A stretch of DNA of 32,000 nt from Acaryochloris marina S15 (GTDB lineage: Bacteria; Cyanobacteriota; Cyanobacteriia; Thermosynechococcales; Thermosynechococcaceae), in NCBI RefSeq assembly GCF_018336915.1, contig NZ_CP064923.1:1440001-1472000 (forward strand), written 5' to 3'. The notes under the pieces are model-generated. The model was not told the DNA's origin and searched no databases. It worked only from the letters and a program-made list of their open reading frames with translations. A program made the position numbers and the translations under genes. This document shows, in pieces, positions 11,396-28,856 of the stretch (positions are counted from its first letter, which is position 1; each line of letters opens with the position of its first letter).

Positions 11396-11686
11396 TTATG
11401 TCCCTAGGATTACAGCGTCTTTTCTGAACCACCGACCTGCCAAGTGGTGGTTTACAGCCCTAATTATACCTTTGCAAACTGTAACAATTCATGAAAACTA
11501 AAAAAAATATAAATTTTTCTGAAATGAACAGATGGAGTTAATGCGAAACACGTTCTATTTTGGCGATCTGCACAGCCCTTTGAGCCCAAACTCAACTAGC
11601 GATGCTGGCAAATCCTTCAAACCTCGTCACTACAAGATCTTGTTATATTTAAGAGCAAATTTAGCGTTTCACCCAGTCCCAATTAA

Positions 11687-12673: not shown

Positions 12674-12716
12674 AGTGATTTTGAGTTCGAACTATATTCT
12701 CAATGAATGGTTTCTA

Positions 12717-13901
12717 TTATGTGGGTGAAGCAACACCTAAATTCTGATAGAAAGAGAATAAGCGTCTGAACACAACATTCTCGTCATACTCGGTTTCCAC
12801 TCTTTGACGCCCCGCTAATCCATAGGCTGTTCTTAAATCTTGATCCGCCAATACTGTCCGTAGCGCTTTAGCCAAAGGGGTAGTGGTCTGTGACGGTACG
12901 ATCAATCCTGTTTGACCTGGAAGCACTGCCTCTCGGCACCCCCGAATATCCGTAGTAACAACGGGTACACTCATGGCCATCGCTTCCAAAATAGAGCGCG
13001 GTAACCCTTCATGGGCAAATGTCGCAAGGACAAAAATATCCATGAGCCCTAGCATCTGCGGAATATCCGTTCGATCCCCAGTAAATGTGACATGGGATGT
13101 TAGGTTAAGCTGCTCAATTTTTTCAGTTAGCTGGTCGTAATAAGGTTCTGGATCGGATTTGAGTTCTCCTCCTACAATCAAAATGTGCAGGTGAGGAAAT
13201 TCTTCAACTAACTGTGCTGCTGCTTCGATTAAATATCCACTGCCTTTGGTTCGGGTTAGTCGCCCAACCGTACCCACAATCAGTTTGGCAGAGGCCGGAA
13301 TCCCCAACTCATCTCGCAAGCGAGATTGATGATCTGGATTTAATACACTTCGATTAAATCGTTCAATATCAACCCCATTACCGAGGTAGCCTAGTTTCGA
13401 TTCCGGACATAATCTTTTCTGGGCTGCAGTCTCCAAGTCTTCATGATTTTGAGACAAAATGAGATCGGTGATTTTGGCACATCCATATTCAATCGCAAAA
13501 TACATCTGAGATTGAAGGGGGGGAGTCAGTTGATGGAACGGAAGGCCGTGGGAGGTGTACACAATCGTGGGGACCCCTGCTAGCTTTGCCGCAATTCGTC
13601 CCAATACAGCAGCAATCGGGGTATGCACATGGACAAGATCGTAAGCCTGCGATCGCATCAACTGAACCAGATTCTGTATTGATTTAAAGTTTAAGACGGG
13701 CGAAATCTTACGATCTATTTGAATAGGATGAACCGTATACCCCTGGGCCTGTAGACGATCAACGGCACCATCGGGGGAGCAGGCAATATCAACCGTAAGG
13801 TGTTGCGATCGCAAATAATCAATTTGAGGTAACAACAGCGTTTCGGCAGTAGCACCCAAAGCACAAACGTGTAAAACTTTCATTTCTTCTTTGTTTACCA
13901 C
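12717..13901 (-). CDS. Glycosyltransferase family 4 (GT-B)
   Basis: The 394-aa ORF has the C-terminal EX7E motif (HEGLPRSILEAMAMSVPVVTTD) and the layout of a GT4 N-terminal domain. It contains two HIP1 octamers, so it has native-like composition. Confidence 0.85.
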   Translation of the reverse strand: MVNKEEMKVLHVCALGATAETLLLPQIDYLRSQHLTVDIACSPDGAVDRLQAQGYTVHPIQIDRKISPVLNFKSIQNLVQLMRSQAYDLVHVHTPIAAVLGRIAAKLAGVPTIVYTSHGLPFHQLTPPLQSQMYFAIEYGCAKITDLILSQNHEDLETAAQKRLCPESKLGYLGNGVDIERFNRSVLNPDHQSRLRDELGIPASAKLIVGTVGRLTRTKGSGYLIEAAAQLVEEFPHLHILIVGGELKSDPEPYYDQLTEKIEQLNLTSHVTFTGDRTDIPQMLGLMDIFVLATFAHEGLPRSILEAMAMSVPVVTTDIRGCREAVLPGQTGLIVPSQTTTPLAKALRTVLADQDLRTAYGLAGRQRVETEYDENVVFRRLFSFYQNLGVASPT

Positions 13902-13929: not shown

Positions 13930-15353
13930 ATGGGCAAAGAACTGATGCAAACAAAGATACAAAAAGCTAGCTCAGTACTATGGAGTTTTATTTTTTTATC
14001 AGCATACGTTAATGCTAGTACCAATAGAGCGATTGCTGCTGAAATAAGCGGCACACAATCTCGACAATACGAAAAAAGCAACGAAGACTTTCCCAATCCA
14101 GAAAGGGGTTTTTTTTTCCATATAATCCTTGGGGAACTCAACCTCGCCCTTCCCTTAAGTTAAGCGAGCTGCAAAAGTTAAGAACCCAAAACATAACCCT
14201 AGCTCGAAGAATCTATCTCATCTCAGAGTTTAGAACTCAACCCCTATCTAGGTCATTCATAAATAAGGTATCAGCGGATCTTTCAACAGCCCGGAAGTCC
14301 GGGATAAAGTTAATTATCAGGTTTGCCTACAATTGGCTAGGAGGTGGAGAAGACACCTCAGTAGAAAGAATAGTCTCTCATTTAGATCAGTTAGAACCAT
14401 TACTGAAAGACAATTATGATGCTATTGCCTATCTAGAAGCAGGATTTATTGGATATTGGGGAGAATGGAATCGATCAACCAACGGATTACGAACTAACCC
14501 TAAAGCCAGAAGAAAAATATTAAAAAAATTATTGTCAGTTCTTCCCTCCGGACGAATGGTGGCCCTAAGATATTCCTATTACAAAGGCGATATTTTTAAC
14601 CAGAAAAAACCGCTTACCCTTAGCGAAGCCTTCAATAGAAGCGATAGAGCCAGAACAGGAGCACATAATGATTGTTTTCTAGCTGGAATCGATGATTGGG
14701 GTACGTATAGCCACACCGATCTGAATATTATCAACAAACAGAAAGCCTTCTTACACTTGGACAACCGATATGTTGTACAGGGTGGTGAAGTCTGCAATCC
14801 CAGCCAGTATGATAACTGTCCAAACGCACAAAAAGAGCTAGCTTACATGCGCTGGAGTACATTAAATAGTTTCCCTTCTGATGGGAAAAGCATATTAGCA
14901 GACTGGGTAACTCAAGGCTGTATGGACAACATCAAGCATCGCCTCGGTTATCGGTTTAGGTTACTAAATGCAGAAATGTCTAACAAAATTGTATCTGGTG
15001 AACCGTTAGCTTTAAAATTTTCAATCATAAATGAGGGTTGGGCCACTGCCTATAACCCTCGAAAGCTAGAAATCGTTCTGCGCCACAAATCATCTGAACG
15101 GAACTATACTCTACTTACAAAAGAAAATCCTCAATATTGGTTGCCTGGGCAAAAAACTACTATCAATATCATTATCAATACCCCCAGTACTTTACCATCA
15201 GGAATATATGAAGTATTTTTGAATCTCCCAGATCCATCGAAGAAACTATCGCATCAGCCAGAGTATTCGATCAGACTGGCAAATGAAGATACTTGGGAAG
15301 AAAATACTGGGTTTAATTCACTAATAATGAATCTGCTAGTTAAGAGCAAGTAA
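13930..15353 (+). pseudogene. Secreted DUF4874/DUF4832-type (glycoside-hydrolase-like) protein, interrupted by a frameshift at a T9 run
   Basis: The frame starting at 13930 encodes a signal peptide and FPNPERGFFF, then stops at 14161-14163. My manual translation of the next frame is open from 14043 to 15353. It continues sensibly as PYNPWGTQPRPSLKLSELQKL...IIRFAYNW...AYLEAGFIGYWGEWN.... The two frames overlap only around T9 (14109-14117). The ORF track reports only the distal part (14532..15353), which starts at an internal TTG. Confidence 0.65.
14109..14117 (+). repeat. T9 homopolymer at the frameshift site
   Basis: Counted directly in GAAAGGGG-TTTTTTTTT-CCATAT. One extra T or two fewer would fuse the two reading frames. 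Confidence 0.9.
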
Positions 15354-15425
15354 ATTACATTCAAAATTTTGAAAGACAAATATATTTAATCTCTGATTAA
15401 CCTCAGAAATATTTAGGGAAGGTAG

Positions 15426-16811
15426 ATGGAGCAAGGTAAACTACAGAAACTATTTTCTTCCTGCAGAAGAATAAGAAGTAACTCCATAAACAACCAAATC
15501 TTCAGTGCAACACTGACTGTAGTGATGCTAACAGTCGCTGTCAAAATAGCTTCTTTTTTAAAAGAGCTTGTTGTGGCTTGGCGCTTTGGAACAAGAGATG
15601 AGTTAGATGCCTTTTTAATCGCATTGGTCGTTCCGTCTCTCCTCAGCAATGTTGTAGCATCTTCTTTCAACTCTGCACTTATTCCTACCTATATCCAGCT
15701 TAGAGAAACCAAAGGTATATCTGCAGCAAATAAGCTTTTCTCAAATTTGATGGTCTGCGTTTTAATGATATTAAGCTTAATATCATTGTTGATGTTAGGT
15801 TTTGCTCATCTATATTTGCCATTTCTTGCTGCAGGCTTCGATGAGCAGAAAATAACTTTAACTTTTAGAATACTTTGCACCATTTCACCCATCATTCTTC
15901 TTGACGGAATCATTTGTAATTGGAGGGCAGTATTGAATGCAGAGGAAAATTTTACTGTAGCTGGTGTTGCACCAATATTTACACCTATTGTGACCATTAT
16001 TCTCCTTCTTCAGGTCCATTCATGGGGTGTATATACTTTAGCGGTTGGATTATGTGTGGGAATGATCCTAGAAGTATTAGCAATAGGATTCATACTCAAT
16101 CAAAAAGGAATTTCACTCATCCCTAAATGGCAGGGATGGGATGACAATCTAACTCATATTTTCAAGCAATATCTCCTTGTCTTGTCTGGAGCTGTTTTGC
16201 TCTGTAGTGCTATTCCCATCGATCAAGCTATGGCGGCAATGTTATCACCTGGGAGTGTAGCTTCTTTGAACTATGGGAATAAAGTAATTGCTGCTCCTAT
16301 GGGTTTATTTACCAGTGGTTTAACAGCTTCAATCATACCGTACTGCTCAAAAATGTATGCCAATGGAGATTGGATTAAAATCAGGCAAGTATTCAAACAA
16401 AATCTAGGCTTAATTATACTCATTGGTACCTCTTTGACTATACTGACAATCACCTTCTCAGAACCAATTGTTCAACTTCTTTTTCAGAGAGGTTCATTTA
16501 TAGAAAAAGACACTAAAATAGTTAGCCAAATACAATCTTTATACTCCTTGCAAATTCCATTTTATATAGGGAATTTATTTTTAATTCGTCTAGCCAGTTC
16601 AATCAAGCAAAACCATCTCCTTCTATGGGTTTCTGGACTTGATCTCATCATAAATATAATACTGAACTATATCTTTGTTAGAATATTTGGTATCAAAGGA
16701 ATAGCACTTTCTACTAGCATCGTTTATATATTTTCTTTCTTTTTTCTGTTATTTAGAATCAACGGATATACGAATCAAGAAACCAATAAGTTAAAAATTA
16801 AAAATGAATAA
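15426..16811 (+). CDS. MurJ/MviN-family (MOP superfamily) flippase
   Basis: The 461-aa polytopic ORF has the MurJ-typical N-terminus KIASFLKELVVAWRFGTRDELDAFLIALVVPSLL...ALIP. A GGAAGG sequence lies upstream of the ATG. Confidence 0.8.
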   Translation: MEQGKLQKLFSSCRRIRSNSINNQIFSATLTVVMLTVAVKIASFLKELVVAWRFGTRDELDAFLIALVVPSLLSNVVASSFNSALIPTYIQLRETKGISAANKLFSNLMVCVLMILSLISLLMLGFAHLYLPFLAAGFDEQKITLTFRILCTISPIILLDGIICNWRAVLNAEENFTVAGVAPIFTPIVTIILLLQVHSWGVYTLAVGLCVGMILEVLAIGFILNQKGISLIPKWQGWDDNLTHIFKQYLLVLSGAVLLCSAIPIDQAMAAMLSPGSVASLNYGNKVIAAPMGLFTSGLTASIIPYCSKMYANGDWIKIRQVFKQNLGLIILIGTSLTILTITFSEPIVQLLFQRGSFIEKDTKIVSQIQSLYSLQIPFYIGNLFLIRLASSIKQNHLLLWVSGLDLIINIILNYIFVRIFGIKGIALSTSIVYIFSFFFLLFRINGYTNQETNKLKIKNE

Positions 16812-16856
16812 ATTCTTTTGGAATTATATTAAGATGCTAGAAATATATATTCAGAC

Positions 16857-16907
16857 TCAAATAGTATCTAACTAAAATCAAATAGTATTTATTTCTCAAT
16901 ATAGTAT
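16857..16907 (+). promoter_or_regulatory. Three direct repeats TCAA(T)ATAGTAT upstream of the glycosyltransferase gene
   Basis: Copies lie at 16857-16867, 16878-16888 and 16896-16907 (the third has one extra T), spaced 21 and 18 nt apart. They sit in the 248-nt AT-rich gap before the 17060 start. Function is not established. Confidence 0.3.
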
Positions 16908-17059
16908 ATAGAAATCTGAAATCAATCGTGAGCTATAGAGAGGCTGAAATCTTTACCAGTATCCATTTAGGTTGAATATAATTCTCACAACTCACGTCAG
17001 ATCGCTATACAAAATAAATATTCAATCAATATAACCCATATAATTCTTACTAAAGGATC

Positions 17060-18151
17060 ATGAAACACACTGCTTTTTTTCTACCAACTCTTCATGGCGG
17101 AGGTGCTGAAAAAGTAGTTCTTGCCCTAACTAATGGCTTTATTGAAAGAGGTATCTCGGTTGATTTAATACTAATCAATATAGAAGGTGAATATCTAAAT
17201 CAGATAAATCCTGAAGTTAACGTTATCGATTTAAAACAAACAAGGGCTTTAAATGCTGTGATCCCCTTAGTTAAGTATTTACAAGAGTTTAAGCCATCTG
17301 TACTCATCTCTCATATGAGTCGGGCCAATCTTGCGGCTATCATAGCCAAAACATGTGCAAGGGTAGATACTTCTCTAATATTAGTGGAGCATAATACTCT
17401 ATCAGCCACTCAATCAAAATTATTCCGGGCTAAGTTATTTCCATTCTTCATGAAACTGCTGTACCCCAAAGCCGAAAAAATTATTGGTGTTTCTCAAGCA
17501 GCATCAAGAGACTTAGAAAAATCATTAAGCTTAAAGGCAGGAAGCATTACAACAATATATAACCCAGTTGTGGATAATGCTTTAGGTCTGAAGGCAAAGC
17601 AATCCTTAAAACATCAATGGTTGGCACCTGGCTCACCCCCCGTATTTTTAACTGTCGGAAGATTAACTGAACAAAAAGATTTTTATACTGCCATCAATGC
17701 ATTTGCAATGGTCCGAAAAAAAATTCCCTCCCGGCTCATAATTTTAGGAGAAGGGGAACTGAGACCGCAAATTGAAGAACTTATTTACACGCTCGATATT
17801 GCACAGGATGTGCACATGGTGGGTTTTGTACAAAATCCATATGCTTATATGAGTCAAGCAGCAGCGTTTATCTTATCTTCTCGATGGGAAGGATTGGGTA
17901 ACGTTCTCATTGAAGCGATGGCATGTGGCACTCCAGTTATTGCTACCGATTGTCCCCATGGACCAAAAGAAATCTTAGAGGATGGAAAATATGGCCCATT
18001 AGTTCCTGTTGGCGATGCGAATGCACTCGCTAACGCCATGCAGAAAATTTTGGAAACCCCCATTGACCGTGAACGTCTTATTGAGAGAGCTAATTACTTT
18101 TCAGTGCAAAGTGCTATCACTCAATATTTATCAGTCATTGGTATTAACTAA
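17060..18151 (+). CDS. Glycosyltransferase family 4
   Basis: The 363-aa ORF starts with FFLPTLHGGGAEKV and has the EX7E motif (WEGLGNVLIEAMACGTPVIATD). Confidence 0.85.
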   Translation: MKHTAFFLPTLHGGGAEKVVLALTNGFIERGISVDLILINIEGEYLNQINPEVNVIDLKQTRALNAVIPLVKYLQEFKPSVLISHMSRANLAAIIAKTCARVDTSLILVEHNTLSATQSKLFRAKLFPFFMKLLYPKAEKIIGVSQAASRDLEKSLSLKAGSITTIYNPVVDNALGLKAKQSLKHQWLAPGSPPVFLTVGRLTEQKDFYTAINAFAMVRKKIPSRLIILGEGELRPQIEELIYTLDIAQDVHMVGFVQNPYAYMSQAAAFILSSRWEGLGNVLIEAMACGTPVIATDCPHGPKEILEDGKYGPLVPVGDANALANAMQKILETPIDRERLIERANYFSVQSAITQYLSVIGIN

Positions 18152-18171
18152 CTAGTAAAACTATCAATTCT

Positions 18172-19533
18172 ATGATTTTATTAGCTTATCTTGGGCTAGT
18201 CATTTTTATAGCTATATTTGAATTCACTAGGGATAAACAGACTTTACTTGATTTCTTAAGCTTTTTTAATATTCTTTTTTGTTTAGCATTTCCCTTGCCA
18301 GGTTTATTCCTATTCTTTTCAGAAAACAATAATCTAAACACATCCATTCTGAAAGGAACTACTATTGATCTCAATAGTTTTCAAGTTCCATTGCTAATTT
18401 TTTTAACCTATTTTTTTGTCACAATAGGATTCCATTTGGATTCTGCCATTCAATCTGCTAACAAAATTCACTTCAAAGAAAAAAATGGCGGCCATATTGT
18501 AATCACTTATGCATTAATTCTAATATTATTTTCTTGCCTCTCGATCTTAATTTATAGTACTCAAAATGGTGGTCTAGTTAATGCAATTTCTAATGCATCC
18601 TTACTACGTTCTACTGTTATTGAAGCACCTCAATTTTCCTTAGTTAAAAGATTCTTTTTGCTATCCTTTATGGGATCTTTTTTATTGTCTTCACTCCTGT
18701 TTGACTCTAAAAGTAAAAGAAAAAAATTGCCATTACTAATTACTTTTTTGATTTCAATTGTTGTTTCATTGCTTTCTTTCTTGTTAATAGCAACTCGCGC
18801 AAATATATTAAGATATATGCTTACTTTTTATTTAGTATATTCCATTAAAAAAGGCAAACACTCTTGGGGGATATTAATATTTTTTATTACACTACTCACC
18901 ATTATTTCTTCCTATGGAAAAGAAATATTTGGGAGTCTAATCTATCTTTCAGATGGTATTGATGCTGTTACTGATAATTTCCAGAATAATATTAACGCTA
19001 ACATGCAGTCAGAAGGTGATCAATCTAATGTCTTAGATGAATTCAGTGCTCCATTTTTTTCAATATTTGCAGCCATAAATTCTACCTATGAACTTAGGTT
19101 ATTTAGTGATTGGCTCTATGGCTTTGCATCATTTCTTCCTGATCGAATTTATGAAGCACCCCCAACAGTCTCTTACTACAATACTTATTTCTTAGTTAAT
19201 ACTGATAAATATGAAATCCCTTCTGGATTTATCTCTTCATGCTTATACAGCATGTCTTGGCCAGGGCTAATGCTTTTTAGTTTATCTTATGGATGGCTTG
19301 GAAGATTTATCCAGCAAGTAACTTATAATCATTCACACGAAATTCATTGGATGCAATATATATATGTTTATTCTGCATTGATATGGTCAGACTATACAAT
19401 ATATGCAGATCCAAAAATATTGCTACAAACACATTTTTGGTTCTTTATTTCATTCTTTTTTTTGATTGTACTATCAAGAAAATTAATTATATCTGATAAA
19501 TATTTAACTATAAAAATGAGGCCAGATAGGTGA
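18172..19533 (+). CDS. Polytopic membrane protein, Wzy-like O-antigen/EPS polymerase candidate
   Basis: The 453-aa ORF is very hydrophobic (F/L/I/S-rich), with at least 10 predicted TM segments and one larger hydrophilic loop (YLSDGIDAVTDNFQNNINANMQSEGDQSN). It sits between two GT genes and after a flippase. No diagnostic motif was recognised, so the call rests on context and topology. Confidence 0.5.
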   Translation: MILLAYLGLVIFIAIFEFTRDKQTLLDFLSFFNILFCLAFPLPGLFLFFSENNNLNTSILKGTTIDLNSFQVPLLIFLTYFFVTIGFHLDSAIQSANKIHFKEKNGGHIVITYALILILFSCLSILIYSTQNGGLVNAISNASLLRSTVIEAPQFSLVKRFFLLSFMGSFLLSSLLFDSKSKRKKLPLLITFLISIVVSLLSFLLIATRANILRYMLTFYLVYSIKKGKHSWGILIFFITLLTIISSYGKEIFGSLIYLSDGIDAVTDNFQNNINANMQSEGDQSNVLDEFSAPFFSIFAAINSTYELRLFSDWLYGFASFLPDRIYEAPPTVSYYNTYFLVNTDKYEIPSGFISSCLYSMSWPGLMLFSLSYGWLGRFIQQVTYNHSHEIHWMQYIYVYSALIWSDYTIYADPKILLQTHFWFFISFFFLIVLSRKLIISDKYLTIKMRPDR

Positions 19534-20663
19534 TGAACAGAAAATCTATATTATTTATCATCACAAACTTCGACAGAAATGGAGCACAAGTAATACTCTA
19601 TAATATTTTATTGAAAATAGATCGCTCACTTTTTAGCCCAGTTGTTATCTCTTTAATGAATTCCTCCGATTTTGGAGATCAATTCCAAGAGCTGGAAATT
19701 CCTATGTATGCGTTAGGAATGCAACAAAAACTTCCAAATATAGATCACCTTTCTGAATTAGTATCGATTATCAAAAAACATCAGCCAGATATAATCCAAG
19801 GGTGGATGTATCATGGCAATATTGCTAGCTGTTTTGCTTATTTATTTTGCTCCCATTCACCTCCAGTCATATGGAGTATTCATCACTCGATCAATGAACT
19901 CTCTGCTGAAAAACTACTCACTCGGCTCTTAATTAGAATTGGAACTATATTTTCCTATTCAACTAGAAAAATAGCTTATGTTTCTAAGACTAGTAAAGAG
20001 CAGCATGAAAAGCTAGGATATACCTCTCAAAAAAGTTGTGTCATACCCAACGGTTTCGATACTTCGCTATTCACCCCTTCCATTGAGAGAAAGAAGGCTT
20101 TTAGAGCTGAGCTTAACTTATCAGATGAAGAGATTGTCATCGGTATAGTTGCTCGATATCATCCCATGAAGGATCATCATAATTTTCTTGCTGCTGCAGC
20201 TCTTCTTGTCCCAAAATTTCCTGACATTCACTTTGTTCTTGTGGGAGATGGAGTAGATGAATTAAACACGACCTTAACTCAATTAGTAGAAACCTCAAGA
20301 CTTCAAAAGCATGTTCATTTGCTTGGGAAAAGAATTGACATGCCTAATATTTTCTCAGCATTAGATATATTGACCTCTGCCTCTGCATATGGAGAGGCCT
20401 TTCCATTAGTGGTTGGTGAAGCTATGTCTTGTCAAGTTACCTGTGTCGTCACAGATGTCGGAGACTCAGCTTTTCTAGTTGGAGATACTGGGATAGTAGT
20501 ACCGACTAAAGATCCTGAATCTCTTGCCAATGCTTGGAGTACATTAATATTAAGGACTCCAGAGGATAGGCTTCTTATGGAAGAAGCCGCCAGACAAAGA
20601 ATAATTGACTCTTTTTCACTAGAGTCAATTGTGAAACAGTATGAAAGTATGTATGCAGGCTAA
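19530..20663 (+). CDS. Glycosyltransferase family 4
   Basis: The 377-aa ORF has the EX7E motif (YGEAFPLVVGEAMSCQVTCVVTD). Its start overlaps the upstream stop (GTGATG), which suggests translational coupling. The ATG at 19533 is an alternative start. Confidence 0.85.
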   Translation: MMNRKSILFIITNFDRNGAQVILYNILLKIDRSLFSPVVISLMNSSDFGDQFQELEIPMYALGMQQKLPNIDHLSELVSIIKKHQPDIIQGWMYHGNIASCFAYLFCSHSPPVIWSIHHSINELSAEKLLTRLLIRIGTIFSYSTRKIAYVSKTSKEQHEKLGYTSQKSCVIPNGFDTSLFTPSIERKKAFRAELNLSDEEIVIGIVARYHPMKDHHNFLAAAALLVPKFPDIHFVLVGDGVDELNTTLTQLVETSRLQKHVHLLGKRIDMPNIFSALDILTSASAYGEAFPLVVGEAMSCQVTCVVTDVGDSAFLVGDTGIVVPTKDPESLANAWSTLILRTPEDRLLMEEAARQRIIDSFSLESIVKQYESMYAG

Positions 20664-20782: not shown

Positions 20783-22432
20783 TCATGAAACAAGAGATGA
20801 AATGATAGCAATGACGCGATCTAAATCTGCATCTGTCATGCAAGATCCAGACGGCAAACATAAACCATTCTTGAACAGGTCTTCAGACACTGCACCGCCA
20901 ATATGGTCACACTTAGCAAACAAAGGCTGTAAGTGCAAAGGTTTCCAGACAGGTCGAGACTCAATTTGATGGTCACGTAGTGCTTCTTGGACTTTATCTC
21001 GGCTCACTCCGAATTTGCTAGAGTCTATCATCAGGCAGGATAACCAATGTGTTGCCTGACCAAAAGTAGGCTCTGGCATTAAAGTTAGCCCAGGCAATAC
21101 CCCTAAATCTCGTAGATATCGATGATATATTCGACGTCGGGCTGCGACTTTTTTGGGTAAGAGCCTCAGTTGGCCCCGACCTATACCAGCCAACACATTA
21201 CTAAGACGATAGTTATATCCCAAGTGAGAATGTTGGTAATGGGGAGCCATGTCTCTTGCTTGCGTGGACAAGAATCGAGCTTTAGCAATCAATGTGGCAT
21301 CTTCTGAAACCAACATTCCTCCACCAGAAGTAGTGATAATTTTATTGCCATTAAAGGAGAACACACCAAGTCGGCCAAATGTACCTGTGGCTTTACCCTG
21401 ATAAGTTGCCCCCAGAGATTCAGCAGCATCCTCAATCAGTGGAATATCGTATTCATTGCAGATTTCTAAAATAGGGTCGATATCTGCACTTTGGCCGTAC
21501 AAATGAACTAAGACCACAGCCTTTGGCAATTTACCTTGGCGAGCCCGCTGCCTTAAGGCCTGCGAGAGTAAATTAGGATCCATATTCCAGGAGGTGCGAT
21601 CGCTGTCTATGAAAACAGGCACTGCCCCTTGATAAAGAATGGGATTCGCACTCGCTACAAAGGTGAGGGTCGAACAAAATACTTCATCGCCAGGTTCAAC
21701 GCCTACCAGTTGCAAAGCTAGATGTATACCAGCAGTTCCTGAACTCAGTGCTGCTGCATGGGAAATACCCACTGCTTCACTGAATTCCTGTTCAAAGGCA
21801 TCTAGATGCGGACCTGCAGGTGCAATCCAATTAGTTTCAAAAGCATTAACAACAAAACCCAACTCATCCGTACCCAAGTGCGGCGGAGACAAAAGAATGG
21901 GGGGGGCCGTTTTTTTGATATTAAGATCTGATCGTTCAGCAATATTAGTTTTGCTGACGTCAGGAGTCCTATTTTCTAGAGTTTCAGGTTGAAGGTGTAG
22001 CAAGAAAAAGTTAACGGTATCTTGCTGAATCCAACCTTTTCGCACAGAAATTTCCCCAAATTTGAGATCTGACTGCTCCTGAACTTGGAGAATTTCCGAA
22101 ATCTGGTTTTCATCTAGTAGATCGGCTGCGTGCAGATATTGTCCAATAGGCTGGTAAGCAGATTGCGTTAGGAGTTGCGGGAATTGATCCACAAAAAAAT
22201 GGATTGTGGATGTTTTTAAGGTTCCTTGCGAAGCTAAAATTTCACCAATTTTGAGATTGTCACATTCAGCTTGCGTTTGCAAAGCTTGTTCAAGCTGCTG
22301 GGCAGAAACTAAGCCTGCTTTTTTGAGCACAGATCCTAACGGTTTGAGTGGAGTTTTAGTGATAGAGCGATCCAAAGGAGTAGGTAACATCGATTTAGCA
22401 ATCTCATGAAAGAAATGAACATGGACGCACAC
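20783..22432 (-). CDS. DegT/DnrJ/EryC1/StrS-family PLP sugar aminotransferase with N-terminal tandem MshEN/T2SSE_N-like extension
   Basis: The 549-aa ORF has a complete DegT-type domain from residue 183 onward (GDEVFCSTLTFVASANPI, PLIEDAAESLGA, and the PLP-Lys context FSFNGNKIITTSGGG). Residues 31-84 and 95-147 are an internal duplication with an LGxxLxxxGLxxxxQLxxALxxQ-type motif. The start could instead be Met15 (22390). Confidence 0.85.
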   Translation of the reverse strand: MCVHVHFFHEIAKSMLPTPLDRSITKTPLKPLGSVLKKAGLVSAQQLEQALQTQAECDNLKIGEILASQGTLKTSTIHFFVDQFPQLLTQSAYQPIGQYLHAADLLDENQISEILQVQEQSDLKFGEISVRKGWIQQDTVNFFLLHLQPETLENRTPDVSKTNIAERSDLNIKKTAPPILLSPPHLGTDELGFVVNAFETNWIAPAGPHLDAFEQEFSEAVGISHAAALSSGTAGIHLALQLVGVEPGDEVFCSTLTFVASANPILYQGAVPVFIDSDRTSWNMDPNLLSQALRQRARQGKLPKAVVLVHLYGQSADIDPILEICNEYDIPLIEDAAESLGATYQGKATGTFGRLGVFSFNGNKIITTSGGGMLVSEDATLIAKARFLSTQARDMAPHYQHSHLGYNYRLSNVLAGIGRGQLRLLPKKVAARRRIYHRYLRDLGVLPGLTLMPEPTFGQATHWLSCLMIDSSKFGVSRDKVQEALRDHQIESRPVWKPLHLQPLFAKCDHIGGAVSEDLFKNGLCLPSGSCMTDADLDRVIAIISSLVS

Positions 22433-24165
22433 GAAAAACTAATTTAGAACTGGAATTTCCATTAGGTTTGGCCAAAAGATTTCGCCACTAAGGCACTAAA
22501 TCTTCGTGGAATCCTTTCAGTGCTTTATTTTGGCTAGGTGATCTAACCTACATAGCCACTATTCTAAATTTTAGATATTTGGAGAAGCTGATATTGGCTG
22601 ACACAAGAGGCTCTCACTCAGAAAAGACCGCACTCAAAGGCCTTGTGACACCTAACTTCGCTTGAATAACCAATGCTCATATCACTACCGTAGTTGTGAT
22701 GTGAGCAAGGGGGATGATTAGAGTATTTGAACTAGTTGCGTCATCAAAACCATCACCCCCCCCAGAATTGTTGATGTAAAGAATAAGTCGGAAGACTTTT
22801 ATTGCGACTTTTATGGAAATATGAAGTATCCTAAATCAAATTTACCATAATCTTTGTGTTCCTTGACACAAGAAGTTGAGCTTTCATTACCAAGATTTAT
22901 TAGTGAGCATATAACTATCTGTTTTAGAGCAAAAAATGGATGTGGCTATTTTTTGCTCAGAAAAGTGGTTTTATTCCAGGATCAAAATTTAATCTATACA
23001 TAAATACTTATACATATTTTTTTAAGATCAAGTAAAATAAGCAATAGGCCAAATAAAGACTTGATGATAGCGCTAAAAGAACTAAGCAAGGTCGTTAAGA
23101 TAGGCGAACTATGAATATGAGTATCTGTTTATAGGATTATCATCTTAGCTTTGTTTTCTTGGGTTAAAAGATGTTTAGGCTGTAATTATTTGGAAATTTA
23201 AATAGGCAATATAATATTCTTTGTTTTTTGATGCTCTCTTTGAATTATCTAAATAAAAATATTGCAAAAATAAACTTTATGAAGATTGTGTATTAAATGG
23301 ACATAACTATTACTAATCTAGAGTTATTTAATCATCAGGTAAAAATATTATGTTTATTTGCATAATACTTATCTACCTATCTTGTGCTGATACCTTTCTG
23401 AGCAGTATAGCCCCACTAATTTATTAAATATTTTGACCCATATCAAAAAGCTCACATCCCAATTATCTAAAGAGTTTTATGCGACCTAATACTCCTGTTT
23501 AGTGTGGGGATATAGCAGATGTTGGTGTGACTTAGTCAATACCTTAGGGGGATCAAAAGCAGTCAATTACACACGTTAGGAAAGTAGGTTGTAAGAACAA
23601 CAATTACTATAGACTTGGTTGAGGAGGATTATACGAAATTGGAAGGCTACTCAATGCACTTTTTAGATAGAAGATGTGTGAGTTTATATGGCCATGATTT
23701 TTGCTATGTTTTCTGTAATTAGATAACTATTTTAGTGAGAATGAGTACTCTCAAGAGTTAATTTCGGTTGATATAGAATGAGCGACTCACTACAGTTTTG
23801 TAACTGACAATACAATTGAACTTCTGTTTAGCAAGATTGTTGTTCAGGAGTCATGGTTCCCCTTAGGGCAAATTATCTTGATCGAGTCCCGGAACAATCT
23901 GCTTCACTTTTGATACTAGGATGATAGAGGCAACAGAATTATATTGATAAACCCTAGTGATCAAGTTCGCTATAAATATTATTTATGTTGCTATCTATGT
24001 TTTGTTGGGTTCTTCTTAGACTAACTAAAGATTGGCCGTTAGCTTAAACATGTACTGGCATATATAGAAATTCTATTTTTCAAGCTAGATGAAACTTAAA
24101 CTAGAACTTAGGAAGCAAAAACATTATTACTGTCTTTTTCTCCTAAAAGTTCTGCACAATAGGAG

Positions 24166-26808
24166 TTGGCACCAGTGCTAGCCTCTCAAAACAGTAAATC
24201 AAGAAAGTTCAGATTAATCCTGCAACGCCATTGGCTACCGTCCTCAGTAGCTTTCACTTTAGTTCTGACCCTCGGAACGCTTGCAATTAAGTTCCTTTAT
24301 CAGCCTCTTTATGTAGCCGAGGGCCAATTGCGATTTACAAAAGTGAATCCCATTTCTAAACTCACTACGTTAGGCTCTGAAATTGGCAATTTAGATCCGC
24401 TTGATCTAGAGGGTAGGCCACTTGAGACTGAATCTGCGGTGATTCAGTCCACCCCTCTTTTGCAAACCACCTTAGATAAACTAAGCTCCCAGAAAAATAT
24501 TGATTACCCCCTAGACCTCAAAGATTTTCGGCAGAATTTTATCATTTCGGATGTTAAGGGCACTGATATCCTCCGAATTACATATAAATCCATTCGTTCT
24601 GACCATGCTGCTTCTGCGGTAAATCTATTGATGCAGGTTTACCTTGAGAACCATCTTCAAGACAATCGCAATTCCATAGAAACGGCTAGCAAATTTATCT
24701 CAGAACGAATACCTCAATCAGAAAATACTGTTCAGAAGGCTGAAAGAGCGCTCCGGCAATTTAAGCAAAAAAATCAGATCGTAGACCTCAGTAACCGTGA
24801 GCAAGATGCTGAGACAAAAATTGCTGAATTACAGGGAAAAATCAGCGATGCTCAAGCTCAAATTGCACAGATCCAAACCGAAGCTAATGTGCTGAGCAAT
24901 CAATTGGGTATGACGCCACAACAAGCCATGGCCGCTGTCAGCCTGAGTCAATCTGCCGAGATTCGCGATGTGCTCACACAATTGCAACAAAAAGAGTCTC
25001 AGCTTGCTCTGCAAACCAACCAGCTCACCGCCACTCACCCCACGGTTCTTGGTTTAGCGCGGGATGTAAACAAGCTAAAGACTCTATTTCAACAACGTGC
25101 CCAGAAAATACTGGGGACAAAATTAGCCACTCCTGAGCCCTTGATTGGTTCCCTACAAGAAGATTTGACCGCAGACCTCGTAAAATTGGAGGCCCAGAGA
25201 CAAGGCTTAGTTAGTCAAGTTATTGCCCAATCAAGAACTTTAGAATCCTACAAAAAACAACTCAACATTTTCCCTGGCTTAGCAGAGAAGCAGCGAGAAT
25301 TAGAGCGAAAATTGGAGGCGGCACAGTCTACCTATGCCTTACTGTTACAAAAACAGCAGGAGATTTTAGCTGAAGCGAATCAAAAAGTAGGAAACGCCAG
25401 AATTTTAGTACCTGCTCAAATTCCCAAAGTACCGGTTACACCCAGTCAATCGGACTATTTGGCAACCGGACTATTAGGGGTGTTAGCCTTCTTTGCCACT
25501 GCCTACATCCTAGAAACTCTGGATAAGTCAATTAGAACCGTAGAAGAAGCCGTTCATCAGTTTGAGTATCCATTACTGGGGGTTATTCCCGTGTTCGGGA
25601 CTTCTAACCATTCCCTGTTTTACGATGGGGGCTTGCAGCAGTTAGCCCCTAAACTGTTCCTCAGAGATTCTCCGGATTCACCGGTCAGTAATGCCTTTCG
25701 GATGCTACAAGTTAGCCTGAAATCGCTAAAAATAGATCACCATTGCCAAACTTTAGTGGTAACGAGTACCTCACCCCAGGAAGGTAAATCCACAGTAGTT
25801 GCGAATTTGGCTATGGCCCTTGCCCAAGCAGGTAGTCACGTGCTGGTCGTGGATGGAAATCTTCGCAACCCGTTTCAAGATCGGATGTGGGATGTCTCGA
25901 ATGAATTTGGTTTAAGCAATATTTTGTTTGGGCAGGCTGATTTGAAAACAGCGACTCAATCGGTTACCTCCCAGGTGGATGTGATGACAGCAGGTAATCT
26001 TCATGCCAATGCCATGGGGACCTTGGAATCAAAACAAATGACTTTGATGCTGAATGCAGCTAAATCTACCTATAACTATGTTCTGATTGATGCACCTTCA
26101 TTAAATTCGGCGGCAGATGTATCCATTTTGGGAGGGCGAGCAGATGGAATTGTGATTGTAGTGAAACCGGGTATTGCCAACCTTCCCAATATAGCTGCAG
26201 CAAAGGAGCTATTAATGCGTTCAGGACAACGGGTAACCGGTCTGATCATTAATGGTGCTTTATCGCAAAATCAGGCATATGGGAACGTCCAGGTCCAACC
26301 CATGAACGGTCAGGTTACCTCCCAACCCTTGCCCAGCCCATCGCCTGGTGTTTCCTTCAATCAAAATCCTTTTCCCGATTATACGCCTGAAGCTTCGTCA
26401 CACGTTTTAATCCAGGCTAATGGTCAATCACCCGATGAAATCCCTTTGCGAGATTTGCAAGATCAAGTTGAGCATTTGCGTACAGTGTGGATTCGATCAG
26501 TTCAGTTTGTCGAGGAACAAGAAGAAGAGCTCGTCCAGCTGCACCATACTGTATCTGACTTGCAAGAGCAGATTCGCGATGCAGGAGGTTACTCCCAAAG
26601 TAACTCTGCAGCGACGGATTTGATACGGTTAGAGCTGCGGCTGGCTCATGACAAAGAACGGTTGCGGTTGTTTGAAAAGACTTTGGTTGGACAGCGGCAG
26701 CGTTTACAGTCTCAGGAGACGGTTTTTCAACATCATCTGGGACTTCTTCAGCGACGCATTAAGCGGATTGTGGGCCATCTTGATCAGAATCAACATTGGC
26801 ATGCTTGA
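24166..26808 (+). CDS. Wzc/GumC-like polysaccharide co-polymerase with BY-kinase-like P-loop domain and C-terminal coiled-coil extension
   Basis: The 880-aa ORF has TM1 (VAFTLVLTLGTLAIKFLY), a long coiled-coil periplasmic region and TM2 (YLATGLLGVLAFFATAYIL). It has Walker A SPQEGKST, a Walker A'-like VLVVDGNLRNP and Walker B YNYVLIDAPS. The annotated TTG start abuts the AGGAG sequence. The in-frame GTG at 24175 has better spacing, 9 nt from AGGAG. Confidence 0.85.
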   Translation: MAPVLASQNSKSRKFRLILQRHWLPSSVAFTLVLTLGTLAIKFLYQPLYVAEGQLRFTKVNPISKLTTLGSEIGNLDPLDLEGRPLETESAVIQSTPLLQTTLDKLSSQKNIDYPLDLKDFRQNFIISDVKGTDILRITYKSIRSDHAASAVNLLMQVYLENHLQDNRNSIETASKFISERIPQSENTVQKAERALRQFKQKNQIVDLSNREQDAETKIAELQGKISDAQAQIAQIQTEANVLSNQLGMTPQQAMAAVSLSQSAEIRDVLTQLQQKESQLALQTNQLTATHPTVLGLARDVNKLKTLFQQRAQKILGTKLATPEPLIGSLQEDLTADLVKLEAQRQGLVSQVIAQSRTLESYKKQLNIFPGLAEKQRELERKLEAAQSTYALLLQKQQEILAEANQKVGNARILVPAQIPKVPVTPSQSDYLATGLLGVLAFFATAYILETLDKSIRTVEEAVHQFEYPLLGVIPVFGTSNHSLFYDGGLQQLAPKLFLRDSPDSPVSNAFRMLQVSLKSLKIDHHCQTLVVTSTSPQEGKSTVVANLAMALAQAGSHVLVVDGNLRNPFQDRMWDVSNEFGLSNILFGQADLKTATQSVTSQVDVMTAGNLHANAMGTLESKQMTLMLNAAKSTYNYVLIDAPSLNSAADVSILGGRADGIVIVVKPGIANLPNIAAAKELLMRSGQRVTGLIINGALSQNQAYGNVQVQPMNGQVTSQPLPSPSPGVSFNQNPFPDYTPEASSHVLIQANGQSPDEIPLRDLQDQVEHLRTVWIRSVQFVEEQEEELVQLHHTVSDLQEQIRDAGGYSQSNSAATDLIRLELRLAHDKERLRLFEKTLVGQRQRLQSQETVFQHHLGLLQRRIKRIVGHLDQNQHWHA

Positions 26809-26864
26809 CAGGTATGCGGTGACCTTTCCCAGTAACGGTAATTTCCTAATAGAGGCGAAACTAT

Positions 26865-27176
26865 CTAGGCTGGAGTGCTGAGGCTGCCTAAAACTGACGA
26901 TAATAAACCTGGAAACAGCTCATCGAGTTCTTCTTGCCGCAGGGAATTAATATGTTGAGTCCCTTCTTTGCGCGCATAAATCACGCCAGACTCCCGCAAA
27001 ATTTTGAAGTGATGGGAGAGGGTGGACTTAGCAATTTCACAATCGAAGGCATTGCAAGTCAGTTCCCCTGAAGTGGCAAGTTGATTGACGATATTTAATC
27101 GAACTGGGTCTCCTAGGGCGTACAACACAGCCGCCAAGGAGATTTGCTGCGGTTCTGGATGGAACAAAATTTTCAT
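26865..27176 (-). CDS. ArsR/SmtB-family winged-helix transcriptional regulator
   Basis: The 103-aa ORF has ALGDPVRLNIVNQL...STLSHHFKILRESGVI, the typical ArsR HTH region. It is transcribed divergently from trxA. Confidence 0.8.
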   Translation of the reverse strand: MKILFHPEPQQISLAAVLYALGDPVRLNIVNQLATSGELTCNAFDCEIAKSTLSHHFKILRESGVIYARKEGTQHINSLRQEELDELFPGLLSSVLGSLSTPA

Positions 27177-27208
27177 AGTTGCATTATGCCACGGGATGAT
27201 CTATATTT

Positions 27209-27241
27209 TAATTGTTCGAGATTCTCGAATAAAAGAACAAT
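27209..27241. promoter_or_regulatory. Nested inverted repeats in the arsR-trxA divergent promoter region (candidate operator)
   Basis: AATTGTTC (27209-27216) and GAACAATT (27234-27241) form 8-bp arms. The inner perfect palindrome TTCGAGA-T-TCTCGAA (27214-27228) overlaps the left arm. All of this lies in the 80-nt intergenic region. The TGTTC/GAACA half-sites resemble ArsR/SmtB-type operators. Confidence 0.4.
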
Positions 27242-27256
27242 AAAGGGAGTCACATT

Positions 27257-27580
27257 ATGTCTTCTACTACCACTATCAATGACACCACCTTTACTACAGA
27301 GGTGCTTGAGAGCCAGCAACCTGTTCTCGTCGATTTTTGGGCCCCTTGGTGTGGACCTTGCCGCATGGTCGGTCCAATCGTTGAAGACATTGCTTCGGAC
27401 TATCAAGATCAGGTCAAAGTCGTTAAATTCAATGTTGATGAAAGCAGCGAGATTGCCAGTCAATATGGGATTCGCAGCATTCCAACTTTAATCGTATTTA
27501 AGGAAGGCCAGCCTGTTGAAACCTTGGTTGGTGCTTCTCCTAAAGCAGTTTTAGTCGAAGCTTTAGACAAACATCTTTAG
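27257..27580 (+). CDS. trxA: Thioredoxin
   Basis: The 107-aa ORF has the active site [10 protein letters not shown] and a GIRSIPTL block. A GGGAG sequence lies 7 nt upstream of the ATG. Confidence 0.95.
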
Positions 27581-27682
27581 GGCTGCTGCTTTTTGAAGAT
27601 AAGGCGTAGCGCGCGCTGCCTGCCTATTTCCCAGGCCAGTTCAGTTTTTTACCACTACCGCAAATAGACAGGGAGATTTCGC

Positions 27683-28783
27683 GTGTCTAACTCACCCTTG
27701 TTCGAACCCATTCACCTGGGTGCCATTGCCCTGGGCAATCGAATTGTGATGGCACCCTTAACCCGAGGTCGATCCGGTATTGAACGGATTCCCAACGATC
27801 TGATGACGGAATACTACCAACAGCGAGCCAGCGCTGGCTTGATCATTGCAGAAGCGACTCAAATCTCGGCGCAAGCTGCTGGTTGGGGCGAAACGCCAGG
27901 GATTTATGCTGATGCCCAAATCCAGGCCTGGCAGAGAATTACAAGTGCGGTCCATCAGCAGGGGGGCAAAATTGTCCTGCAAATCTGGCATACGGGACGA
28001 GCTTCTCATCCTGATTTTCAGTTGAATGGGGCACTGCCAATTTCTGCCTCAGCCGTTAAGCCAGCCGGTGAAATCCATACTATTAAGGGCAAAAAACCTT
28101 TTGTTACCCCAAAAGCTGCAAGCCTGGAAGAGATTGCTGGCATTATCCAAGATTTTGCTCAAGCCACTCGCAATGCTCGACAAGCGGGTTTTGATGGGGT
28201 TGAAATTCATGCTGCCAATGGTTACTTGATTGATCAGTTTCTTAGAGATGGTACCAATCAGCGACAAGATGCTTATGGTGGCCCGATTGAGAATCGGGTT
28301 CGGTTTTTGCTGGAAGTGACGGAAGCGGTGGTCGATGCCTGGAGTGCGGATCATGTCGGTGTCCGATTGTCTCCAACCAATGCGTTTAATGACATGACCG
28401 ATAGCAATCCGATCGCAACTTTCACCCATGCCGCTCAAGCGCTCAATACTTACAATCTAGCCTATCTCCATATTCTCGAAGCCCTACCAGGACATATGCT
28501 GGCGGTGGAAGGCGAGCGGGTGAGTCCTTATATGCGACAGGTTTTTCAAGGTCCGTTGATGATCAATGGTGGCTATGATGCAGCGAGTGGTGCTGCTGCG
28601 ATCGCAAACCAAGAAGCCGATCTAGTCGCCTATGGTGTGCCGTTTATTGCCAATCCTGACTTACCGGAAAGCTTTGCAAGACAAGCGCCCCTCAATGAAC
28701 CGGATATATCCACGTTCTATTCCCGTGGGGCAAAAGGCTATACAGACTATCCATTTTTAGACCCGGTCGTGACAGCCGCATAG
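27683..28783 (+). CDS. Old Yellow Enzyme family NAD(P)H:flavin oxidoreductase (NemA / alkene reductase-like)
   Basis: The 366-aa ORF has a GTG start. OYE blocks are present: RIVMAPLTR, IWHTGRASH, GFDGVEIHAANGYLIDQFL and VGVRLSP. Confidence 0.9.
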   Translation: MSNSPLFEPIHLGAIALGNRIVMAPLTRGRSGIERIPNDLMTEYYQQRASAGLIIAEATQISAQAAGWGETPGIYADAQIQAWQRITSAVHQQGGKIVLQIWHTGRASHPDFQLNGALPISASAVKPAGEIHTIKGKKPFVTPKAASLEEIAGIIQDFAQATRNARQAGFDGVEIHAANGYLIDQFLRDGTNQRQDAYGGPIENRVRFLLEVTEAVVDAWSADHVGVRLSPTNAFNDMTDSNPIATFTHAAQALNTYNLAYLHILEALPGHMLAVEGERVSPYMRQVFQGPLMINGGYDAASGAAAIANQEADLVAYGVPFIANPDLPESFARQAPLNEPDISTFYSRGAKGYTDYPFLDPVVTAA

Positions 28784-28817
28784 CATCGAGCTTTTTATCC
28801 CGATACTTTCCTAGATC

Positions 28818-28856
28818 GTCTCGTGGTTACCCGTCGGGTCACTACGAGACTTTTTT
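28818..28856 (+). terminator. Rho-independent terminator after the OYE gene
   Basis: GTCTCGT...ACGAGAC forms an outer stem and ACCC-GTC-GGGT an inner stem (28818-28850). A T6 run follows immediately (28851-28856). Confidence 0.6.

Follow-up and report, generated by a model that had tools for sequence, protein, structure and literature searches.

Why should an aminotransferase of exopolysaccharide (EPS) synthesis carry, ahead of its catalytic domain, two modules of the type that binds cyclic di-GMP (c-di-GMP), do these modules belong to the protein at all, and what might they do there? The questions are raised by a minus-strand gene in a 32,000-nucleotide stretch of the Acaryochloris marina S15 genome (contig NZ_CP064923.1, positions 1,440,001 to 1,472,000), called the window below, in whose coordinates the features are given. 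A preliminary description, made from the sequence alone, had singled out positions 21884-22432, which are the first 183 codons of a 549-amino-acid (aa) open reading frame (ORF) on the minus strand at 20783..22432. The most likely coding sequence of the fusion is 20783..22390 (-), which encodes 535 aa plus a stop codon and begins at the ATG at 22390. The core of that description, c-di-GMP-type modules homologous to MshEN_N and fused in frame to an intact aminotransferase, was upheld, and its prediction of T2SSE_N matches failed. The fusion is real as a single polypeptide; a response to c-di-GMP is a reading that we hold tentatively.

Residues 31-84 and 95-147 of the 549-aa ORF had been read as an internal duplication, and both copies were located exactly there. 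Copy 1 was aligned to copy 2 by BLASTP over 52 aa at 37% identity (E=1e-11), and a module hidden Markov model (HMM) built from relatives matched the window, translated in all six frames, at exactly two places (E=8.5e-24 and 2.9e-26) and nowhere else. The described layout of two 24-residue half-motifs around a short spacer in each copy was likewise borne out. Module 1 is made up of a first half-motif, M1-A (PLGSVLKKAGLVSAQQLEQALQTQ; 22271..22342, -; 9/11 strict and 10/11 relaxed MshEN motif positions), the six-residue spacer AECDNL (22253-22270) and a second half-motif, M1-B (KIGEILASQGTLKTSTIHFFVDQF; 22181..22252, -; 4/11 strict, 9/11 relaxed). The 10-residue connector PQLLTQSAYQ (22151-22180) leads into module 2, with first half-motif M2-A (PIGQYLHAADLLDENQISEILQVQ; 22079..22150, -; 6/11 strict, 9/11 relaxed), the five-residue spacer EQSDL (22064-22078) and second half-motif M2-B (KFGEISVRKGWIQQDTVNFFLLHL; 21992..22063, -; 5/11 strict, 9/11 relaxed). 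The modules are followed, as had been described, by a linker and a complete DegT-type domain; the flexible linker (21899..21991, -) is 31 aa long (residues 134-164 counted from Met15, the methionine encoded at 22390) rather than about 35, is 77% polar or charged, has a predicted local distance difference test (pLDDT) score below 50 in the AlphaFold2 (AF2) model, and differs in length and sequence between homologs.

Homology to MshEN was detected with the NCBIfam model NF053729 ('cyclic di-GMP-binding domain, MshE-related', 53 positions), which scored the full protein at 66.5 bits and the N-terminal fragment at 74.5 bits against a cutoff of 38, in two stretches. The two predicted matches to Pfam T2SSE_N (PF05157) did not appear even at E<=10, because only the N-terminal four-helix subdomain (53 residues) is present; the C-terminal alpha/beta subdomain is absent, each module being trailed by the 10-aa connector or the disordered linker only, and no strands are predicted. 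Meaningful sequence matches in the PDB were confined to Vibrio cholerae MshE (5HTL, E=0.0046; query 16-70 against chain 8-62) and the GSPII domains of Thermus PilF.

The AF2 model of residues 1-203 contained two four-helix units, each at pLDDT ~90 and with short-long-short-long helices, and a disordered linker. Superposition on the MshE complex had been proposed as a check, and the AF2 model of module 1 (pLDDT 84) matched c-di-GMP-bound MshE (5HTL_B) with a template modelling (TM) score of 0.80 and a root-mean-square deviation (rmsd) of 1.2 Å over 57 columns at 37% identity; the Foldseek matches ranked next were all GSPII domains. In a first Foldseek run, made with residues 1-203, MshEN/GSPII domains were also ranked at the top, at an rmsd of ~11 Å because two modules had been aligned with an N- plus a C-subdomain, and the single-module model was used instead. 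Foldseek E-values were above 0.1 (not significant) for this 65-residue helical query, and the fold evidence therefore consists of the TM score, the rmsd and the ranking. By profile match and predicted fold, each unit is an MshEN_N subdomain without the C-terminal alpha/beta subdomain, and the modules correspond to the 'MshEN_N only, no T2SSE_N1' class defined by Wang et al. 2016 (PMC5013675, Supplementary Table 4). As a separate observation, Pfam DUF4388/PATAN gave a sub-threshold match to residues 28-80 of the 549-aa ORF (23.7 bits, cutoff 25, profile positions 48-93) and a similarly weak one in a WecG fusion (P0196), and the PATAN helical insert may be related to MshEN_N.

Do the modules reach the protein? 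The 549-aa ORF exists on the minus strand as described, and its mechanical start, GTG at 22432, was replaced by ATG 22390 (Met15) as the likely start because every one of the eight clusters of fused homologs (63-92% identity, 535-553 aa) has its N-terminus at the position of Met15. Codon 15 is the sole in-frame ATG upstream of the enzyme domain, with the next Met lying 105 residues inside that domain. The ratio of nonsynonymous to synonymous substitution rates (dN/dS) was calculated by the Nei-Gojobori method for the window gene against four homologs (five genes), between which synonymous divergence is saturated. Values were 0.03-0.14 for the modules, 0.04-0.05 for the enzyme domain and 0.27-0.85 for the linker, which is under relaxed selection; the reading frame runs unbroken from the modules into the enzyme in all five genes despite the saturation. 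Two fused paralogs on one contig, 71% identical to each other, have both kept the modules. Given the purifying selection that the module ratios indicate, the modules are translated in frame and the one-polypeptide fusion protein is real. Some additional internal start that yields free enzyme may exist, and would leave the fusion product in place.

A start near residue 180 had been named beforehand as the finding that would speak against the fusion, and it agrees with most public gene models. The A. marina MBIC11017 ortholog (NC_009925.1; positions 5959-7608 of the extracted locus L008 correspond to window 20783-22432) and others are represented by short models of 406 aa (ABW29807.1), 386 aa (WP_049783845.1) and 378 aa (WP_041660991.1), all of which cut off both MshEN_N modules. 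If translation began downstream as these three models depict it for the A. marina ortholog, the repeats would be non-coding or vestigial and absent from the mature enzyme, a state in keeping with the ~380-aa unfused orthologs that are the norm in cyanobacteria. We consider this scarcely credible: it is contradicted by the purifying selection on the modules, which in this very frame have a dN/dS equal to the enzyme domain's. In at least nine homologs, down to 53% identity, modules and enzyme are not interrupted by any stop codon, and there is no in-frame ATG from Met15 to residue 270. The 406-aa model opens at a Leu codon within helix 4 of module 2 (M2-B) and the RefSeq models open at Ile codons, and the 535-aa form is called in other annotations (BDM78691.1, WP_010478219.1), including those of Acaryochloris sp. 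CCMEE 5410 and of A. marina MBIC10699. A scan for promoters and terminators returned 9 sites against 9.7 expected and was uninformative on the start site.

The C-terminal part of the fusion (20783..21898, -) is a pyridoxal phosphate (PLP)-dependent nucleoside diphosphate (NDP)-4-keto-6-deoxyhexose C4-aminotransferase domain of the PglE/EpsN/LegC-like type. It is complete, as the preliminary description had it, matching Pfam DegT_DnrJ_EryC1 (PF01041) with E=2e-97 over profile positions 5-359 of 360. The PLP-lysine, in the motif NGNK, is Lys350 counted from Met15 (codon at 21341-21343), and both DAAE and NGNK align with Campylobacter jejuni PglE, which is also the best solved structure for the catalytic domain (1O61/4ZTC, E ~1e-94). 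From its sequence the enzyme can safely be classed as an NDP-4-keto-6-deoxyhexose C4-aminotransferase. The LegC-family model TIGR04181 scored 383 bits against a cutoff of 420 and the PseC model TIGR03588 scored 247 against 423.5; since both fall below their equivalog cutoffs and PglE is the closest structure, the substrate is assigned by way of the nearest characterised homologs and is most likely UDP-4-keto-6-deoxy-GlcNAc. Genes for a 4,6-dehydratase, an acetyltransferase or a PglC-type transferase were absent from the window. The unfused cyanobacterial orthologs, of ~380 aa, carry the JGI name 'EpsN'.

Where do the modules come from? A profile of the tandem unit recovered stand-alone cyanobacterial 'hypothetical proteins' of 150-220 aa, 40-50% identical at ~95% coverage and down to E=4e-40, which align gaplessly with the tandem unit and themselves pass NF053729. 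In a search of 1.84 billion cluster representatives the profile gave 1,631 matches at E<=1e-3 and 134 at E<=1e-30; among the best 146 representatives, 82 were no longer than 260 aa and 39 exceeded 400 aa. Partner domains in 59 longer proteins, assigned by Pfam scan, were most often TPR (23) and further included pentapeptide repeats (4), FHA (3) and AAA_35 (3). Tandem (MshEN_N)2 units were also found C-terminally fused to glycosyltransferases of the WecG/TagA family (P0196, P0304) and of Alg13/14-like type (P0187), the latter carrying two tandem units. These architectures indicate that (MshEN_N)2 is a common portable cyanobacterial unit and, judged by sequence, that its fusion to polysaccharide enzymes arose on more than one occasion.

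The fusion to a DegT enzyme is narrow by comparison. It was found in only eight 90%-identity clusters among 5.8 billion proteins, the named members all being Acaryochloris, and in 185,579 species-representative genomes the sole full-length match among the matches listed was A. marina MBIC11017, at 90% identity. No further DegT fusions occurred among the best 146 cluster representatives, a library clustered at 50% identity, where fused proteins disappear into clusters whose representative is an unfused enzyme; as it is blind to such fusions, their rarity rests on the searches of 5.8 billion proteins and 185,579 genomes. The census of Wang et al. 2016 (PMC5013675) lists 12 MshEN proteins in MBIC11017, and the fusion protein is not one of them, because the 406-aa GenBank model without modules was presumably used. 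Two entries of that census, AM1_4892 and AM1_4963, were considered as the fusion protein, and neither is. The architectures in Supplementary Table 4 of that paper are stand-alone (MshEN_N)2 (cce_1044), (MshEN_N)2-CheX, MshEN_N-AAA_31 (EpsG), MshEN_N-Peptidase_M23 and TrxB-MshEN_N, with no aminotransferase. The earlier statement that no characterised aminotransferase has this architecture agrees with the published architecture tables and the searchable literature, where none was found.

Can the modules bind c-di-GMP? Motif positions were compared across 9 fused sequences and 49 stand-alone relatives. In MshE, the backbone amide of Gly3 reads guanine, the Leu triads (positions 2, 17 and 21) and Arg1 stack on guanine, and Gln24 touches the ribose-phosphate; mutation G11L abolishes binding, and G40I, Q61A and L29V cost 72-fold, 12-fold and 4-fold, respectively. 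Gly3 is invariant in all four half-motifs in 9/9 fused sequences. The hydrophobic positions 2/17/21 read L/L/L, I/I/V, I/I/L and F/V/L in the window and are always Leu, Ile, Val or Phe, Ile having been tolerated at such positions in PilF experiments. In the fused clade Gly3, Leu2, Leu17, Leu21 and Gln24 of M1-A are invariant or conservatively kept, and Gln24 is invariant in both first half-motifs (M1-A and M2-A). On this footing we propose that the fusion carries a c-di-GMP-responsive, tethered tandem sensor whose docking controls the supply of amino-sugar precursor, a reading whose chances we put not far short of even. It is favoured by the retention of Gly3, of positions 2/17/21 and of first-half Gln24, by the 74.5-bit score with NF053729, by the prediction of Wang et al. 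2016 (PMC5013675), who listed the cyanobacterial tandem proteins cce_1044, Sll0547, AM1_4963 and AM1_6001 as 'Predicted c-di-GMP binding', and by the tolerance of position 1 seen in an Aeromonas CheA module, which retained a dissociation constant (KD) of 2.6 uM with R1M and R30K. The recurrence of MshEN fusions to WecG/TagA, Alg13/14-like and GT2 (NfrB) glycosyltransferases and to the BY-kinase EpsG would, by analogy, point the same way.

A good deal weighs against a c-di-GMP sensor. Position 1 of the four half-motifs is Pro, Lys, Pro and Lys, with Arg in none. Position 24 of the second half-motifs is Phe in M1-B and Leu in M2-B instead of Gln, the residue at which Q61A lowers binding 12-fold in MshE. 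Position 11 of M1-B is Thr, against Trp in 34/49 stand-alone relatives and Phe48 in MshE, and an F48K change was flagged as critical for the loss of binding in a Deinococcus PilB domain. Position 10 of M2-A is Asp, against Gly or Ala in 45/49. The fused clade has thus specifically lost residues conserved in the stand-alone family (Trp to Thr/Ser, Trp to Leu/Phe, Gly/Ala to Asp), which suggests altered constraints. The doubt about ligand binding voiced in the preliminary description, over Pro and Lys at position 1 and Asp at position 10, was justified, though the relaxed motif of Wang et al. 2016 (PMC5013675), with [RKPN] permitted at position 1, covers both Pro and Lys. On comparison of the aligned residues, the gravest deviations are the loss of second-half Gln24, Thr11 for an aromatic residue in M1-B and Asp10 in M2-A, all more serious than position 1. 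At M1-B position 24 the Phe stands against Trp in 44/49 stand-alone relatives, and at M2-B position 24 Leu or Phe is found throughout the family.

Experience with Thermus PilF adds to the case against. Binding by its GSPII-A domain was measurable only once the motif-II Arg and the two terminal Gln had been put back, and a perfect consensus still failed in the full-domain context, so that the consensus is no guarantee of binding; Ser at motif II position 1 of GSPII-A abolishes binding. Reviews state that the MshEN domains of cyanobacteria have never been assayed for binding. No GGDEF, EAL or HD-GYP genes lie within the window, and neither a c-di-GMP riboswitch nor any other Rfam family was detected in it or in the 1.7-kb gap upstream of the fusion gene, at gathering threshold or at E<=1. 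No stand-alone module genes lie within ±6 kb of ~75 unfused aminotransferase loci, and three stand-alone (MshEN_N)2 genes occupy unrelated housekeeping contexts; this Rosetta-stone comparison, in which module and aminotransferase were not adjacent, gives no adjacency support for a functional link. Finally, the mode of regulation (activation, direction, partner) is wholly inferred.

The same deviations are what the principal alternative would lead one to expect, namely that the modules are degenerate MshEN_N domains, nucleotide-free, that serve as a constitutive interaction or oligomerisation handle tethering the enzyme to the EPS machinery or a TPR-type protein. Channelling of the substrate would in that case depend on no second messenger, with the Wzc-like protein and the priming transferase as candidate anchors. 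We regard such an adaptor as a sizeable possibility, appreciably below even. The experimentally important positions (second-half Gln24, Arg1, M1-B 11, M2-A 10) are the ones that deviate, the fused clade departs from the stand-alone family exactly at its conserved Trp and Gly positions, and MshEN/GSPII folds are known as ligand-free interaction modules: the complex of the Xanthomonas PilB N-domain with PilZ (7LKM) is among the fold matches, and the N-domains of XpsE/GspE are listed as non-binders. The partners of tandem modules are mostly interaction scaffolds (TPR in 23/59 long proteins, pentapeptide repeats, FHA), and the gene pair of aminotransferase and Wzc is conserved in cyanobacteria. 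Against an adaptor, the described non-binders have lost at least one Gly3 (XpsE G11V/G40L, Deinococcus PilB_3 G40E, PilF-A Ala41), whereas all four Gly3 are invariant here over saturated divergence; the conserved positions are the ligand-contact set and not just the core; and the score with the curated c-di-GMP motif HMM is nearly double the cutoff.

Alternatively, a different ligand (3',3'-cyclic GMP-AMP (cGAMP), c-di-AMP or a nucleotide-sugar) might be accommodated by a remodelled second half-site in which the invariant Thr16, Phe19 and Phe20 (together with Trp in relatives) replace the Leu/Gln contacts. The cyanobacterial family does have an invariant signature of its own, G-[WT]-x4-T-x2-FF, absent from the MshE consensus. 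Aromatic residues commonly stack on purines, and VcMshEN binds cGAMP weakly (Wang et al. 2016, PMC5013675; for cGAMP, Fig. 1h legend). The idea is speculative, with no positive evidence for an alternative ligand, and the Gly3 amide readout of guanine O6/N7, which discriminates against adenine in MshE (PMC5013675), is kept; we consider it improbable.

How would a c-di-GMP sensor work on this enzyme? Architecture, homology, fold, purifying selection, enzyme class and gene context are established, and from them we infer a ligand, a direction of regulation and a partner as follows. The tandem unit would be a regulatory sensor recruited from the (MshEN_N)2 family that is widespread in cyanobacteria. 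One or both modules would bind c-di-GMP in the manner of MshE, with Gly3 amides reading the guanine edge, positions 2/17/21 stacking on the base and Gln24 contacting the ribose-phosphate. Affinity would probably be below that of canonical modules, because Arg1 and second-half Gln24 are missing; natural MshEN domains span 13.5 nM to 2.6 uM. An additive estimate of the loss from MshE point mutants was set aside, context effects being large. The liganded module would most likely dock on its own enzyme dimer or on a partner in the assembly machinery (the Wzc-like protein is a conserved neighbour), since the connection is a long flexible tether and not a rigid joint. At high c-di-GMP the supply of amino-sugar precursor might then be switched on or channelled, by a logic analogous to that of NfrB. 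The preliminary description had suggested second-messenger or partner-protein control of amino-sugar supply, and such control is worded here, too, as something that may operate.

The gene sits in a Wzx/Wzy/Wzc-type exopolysaccharide locus of an Acaryochloris-type cyanobacterium. Pfam and NCBIfam scans identified three GT4 glycosyltransferase genes, a MurJ-like flippase, a polytopic protein and a bacterial tyrosine (BY)-kinase/Wzc-like gene. The setting beside a glycosyltransferase/flippase/polymerase cluster, divergent from a wzc-like gene, was as had been described, except that the polymerase was matched only weakly (TIGR04370, 21.7 bits, cutoff 40). A low-GC polysaccharide cassette (14532..20663, +; GC 0.30-0.38) converges on the fusion gene and comprises, by the same scans, a DUF4832 fragment, the MurJ-like flippase (15426-16811), a GT4 gene (17060-18151), the polytopic Wzy candidate (18172-19533) and a further GT4 gene (19530-20663). 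GC is 0.30-0.38 in the region ~15000-20000, against 0.44-0.50 in the flanks. In the fused relative at locus L007, 83% identical, the cassette is replaced by other genes (a Polysacc_synt flippase and O-ag_pol_Wzy), a pattern typical of a swappable, serotype-like block between conserved flanks; a comparable cassette adjoins the fused paralogs of loci L005 and L006. Whereas L006 has a DUF4874/DUF4832 gene that is intact (488 aa), this gene appears split in the window into a 77-aa ORF (13930-14163, +) and a 273-aa ORF with a TTG start (14532-15353, +), and may be a pseudogene or frameshifted here.

On the other side of the fusion gene, a divergent intergenic region (22391..24165) of ~1.7 kb, AT-rich with GC 0.32-0.39, separates it from the Wzc-like gene and is free of Rfam families and of ORFs that reach 50 aa; it presumably holds the promoters of both genes. 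The window, this region included, is collinear with A. marina MBIC11017 at ~82% nucleotide identity. The Wzc-like polysaccharide co-polymerase / tyrosine autokinase (24166..26808, +) matches TIGR01007 at 129.8 bits (cutoff 108) and has GNVR and AAA_31 domains. Residues 751-870 of that protein form a coiled-coil tail like that of HmpF, a taxis protein of pilus motility (NF038350, 68 bits, below the cutoff of 200; the L007 ortholog has PF28019 listed). It is unusual for an EPS co-polymerase to be linked in this way with a polarity factor of type IV pili.

Unfused aminotransferase genes lie directly upstream of a co-directional Wzc-like gene in at least 22 cyanobacterial reference loci from Nostoc, Rivularia, Calothrix, Altericista, Chroococcidiopsis and others (L014, L019, L023, L026, L028, L031, L033, L040-L046, L051-L054, L061, L063, L064 and L068). 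We found no description of this gene pair in the literature searched. In L007 the fusion gene and the Wzc-like gene are likewise co-directional, with a 155-bp gap; relative to L007, the fusion gene together with ~440 bp upstream is inverted in the window and in A. marina (20795-22873 against L007 9515-11599), while the flanks at 11620-13883 and 24310-28824 stay collinear; the inversion leaves the 1.7-kb divergent region between the two genes. Because the unfused loci and L007 share this arrangement, the enzyme-Wzc pair is ancestral and the N-terminal module a lineage-specific addition.

The two fused paralogs of L005/L006 (P0008 and P0005, 71% identical) bracket one EPS cassette on contig JAHLSW010037718.1 (GCA_020357715.1). 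That cassette also encodes a PglC-like Bac_transf protein, a formyltransferase, a PIG-L deacetylase, a PhyH-family protein and a FemAB-like acyltransferase; its Bac_transf, formyltransferase, PIG-L and FemAB-like genes are not in the window. Its content hints at an N-acylated 4-amino-4,6-dideoxyhexose as priming sugar.

What would follow? Cyanobacteria have many c-di-GMP cyclases and phosphodiesterases and few validated receptors (PilZ on cellulose synthase; CdgR/ComFB). That c-di-GMP directly gates a nucleotide-sugar aminotransferase, such that a Wzx/Wzy exopolysaccharide is controlled via precursor supply and not via the synthase, a transcription factor or a secretion ATPase, is a claim that we consider rather unlikely to hold. 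If it did hold, these would be the first cyanobacterial MshEN_N modules with demonstrated ligand binding and a handle on a (MshEN_N)2 family of roughly 1,600 clusters. Binding would make precursor amino-sugar synthesis a new control point in the c-di-GMP regulation of exopolysaccharides and would lend weight to the role predicted for the cyanobacterial tandem-module proteins now called 'hypothetical', a very large family. The locus is a compact test case, in which a soluble, assayable enzyme is tethered to two candidate receptor modules. Regardless of the ligand, the analysis corrects the Acaryochloris gene models, most of which start downstream and delete the modules.

Set against known systems, what is new is the combination of module and nucleotide-sugar aminotransferase, while the module family, its predicted function and MshEN-enzyme fusions in polysaccharide synthesis (NfrB) are known; the fusion is narrow in distribution and its binding motif, as aligned, is degenerate. 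The catalytic domain aligns over its whole length with C. jejuni PglE, which, like Bacillus subtilis EpsN, is a UDP-4-keto-6-deoxy-GlcNAc C4-aminotransferase of the bacillosamine pathway and is without an N-terminal extension. With V. cholerae MshE (5HTL), the prototype c-di-GMP receptor of this kind, the modules share the 53-residue unit, the two half-motifs, the four-helix bundle, Gly3, the hydrophobic positions 2/17/21 and first-half Gln24, module 1 aligning to MshE 8-62. They differ from it in that only the N-subdomain is present, duplicated in tandem, with Pro or Lys in place of Arg1, Phe or Leu in place of second-half Gln24 and, in module 1, a six-residue spacer; they are coupled to a PLP aminotransferase, whereas the output of MshE is a secretion or pilus ATPase. 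The stand-alone (MshEN_N)2 proteins (Cyanothece cce_1044, Synechocystis Sll0547 and A. marina AM1_4963; Wang et al. 2016, Supplementary Tables 3 and 4) are the direct family, 40-50% identical and gapless over ~128 residues; they have the same tandem layout, likewise start with 'KPLG' and carry the 'T..FF' signature. In the fusion protein the unit is attached to an enzyme and has lost conserved residues at M1-B 11 and 24 and at M2-A 10.

Two systems come closest in setting. Methylobacillus EpsG also places an MshEN_N-only module at a Wzc-type EPS system, and residues 5-53 of the EpsG model TIGR03029 match module 2 (E ~1e-7); in EpsG the module is on the BY-kinase (AAA_31) itself, whereas here the Wzc-like protein has none and the neighbouring aminotransferase carries the modules. 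Escherichia coli NfrB, a GT2 exopolysaccharide synthase activated by c-di-GMP through its C-terminal MshEN (PMC8669469), joins an MshEN-type module and a polysaccharide-biosynthesis enzyme on one chain, as does the present fusion, and offers a precedent for allosteric activation by c-di-GMP; the MshEN region of NfrB gave weak HMM matches to these modules. NfrB, however, has a full, conserved C-terminal MshEN on a membrane-bound processive glycosyltransferase, whereas in A. marina S15 two partial, deviant N-terminal modules precede a soluble, precursor-forming aminotransferase of a Wzx/Wzy-type pathway.

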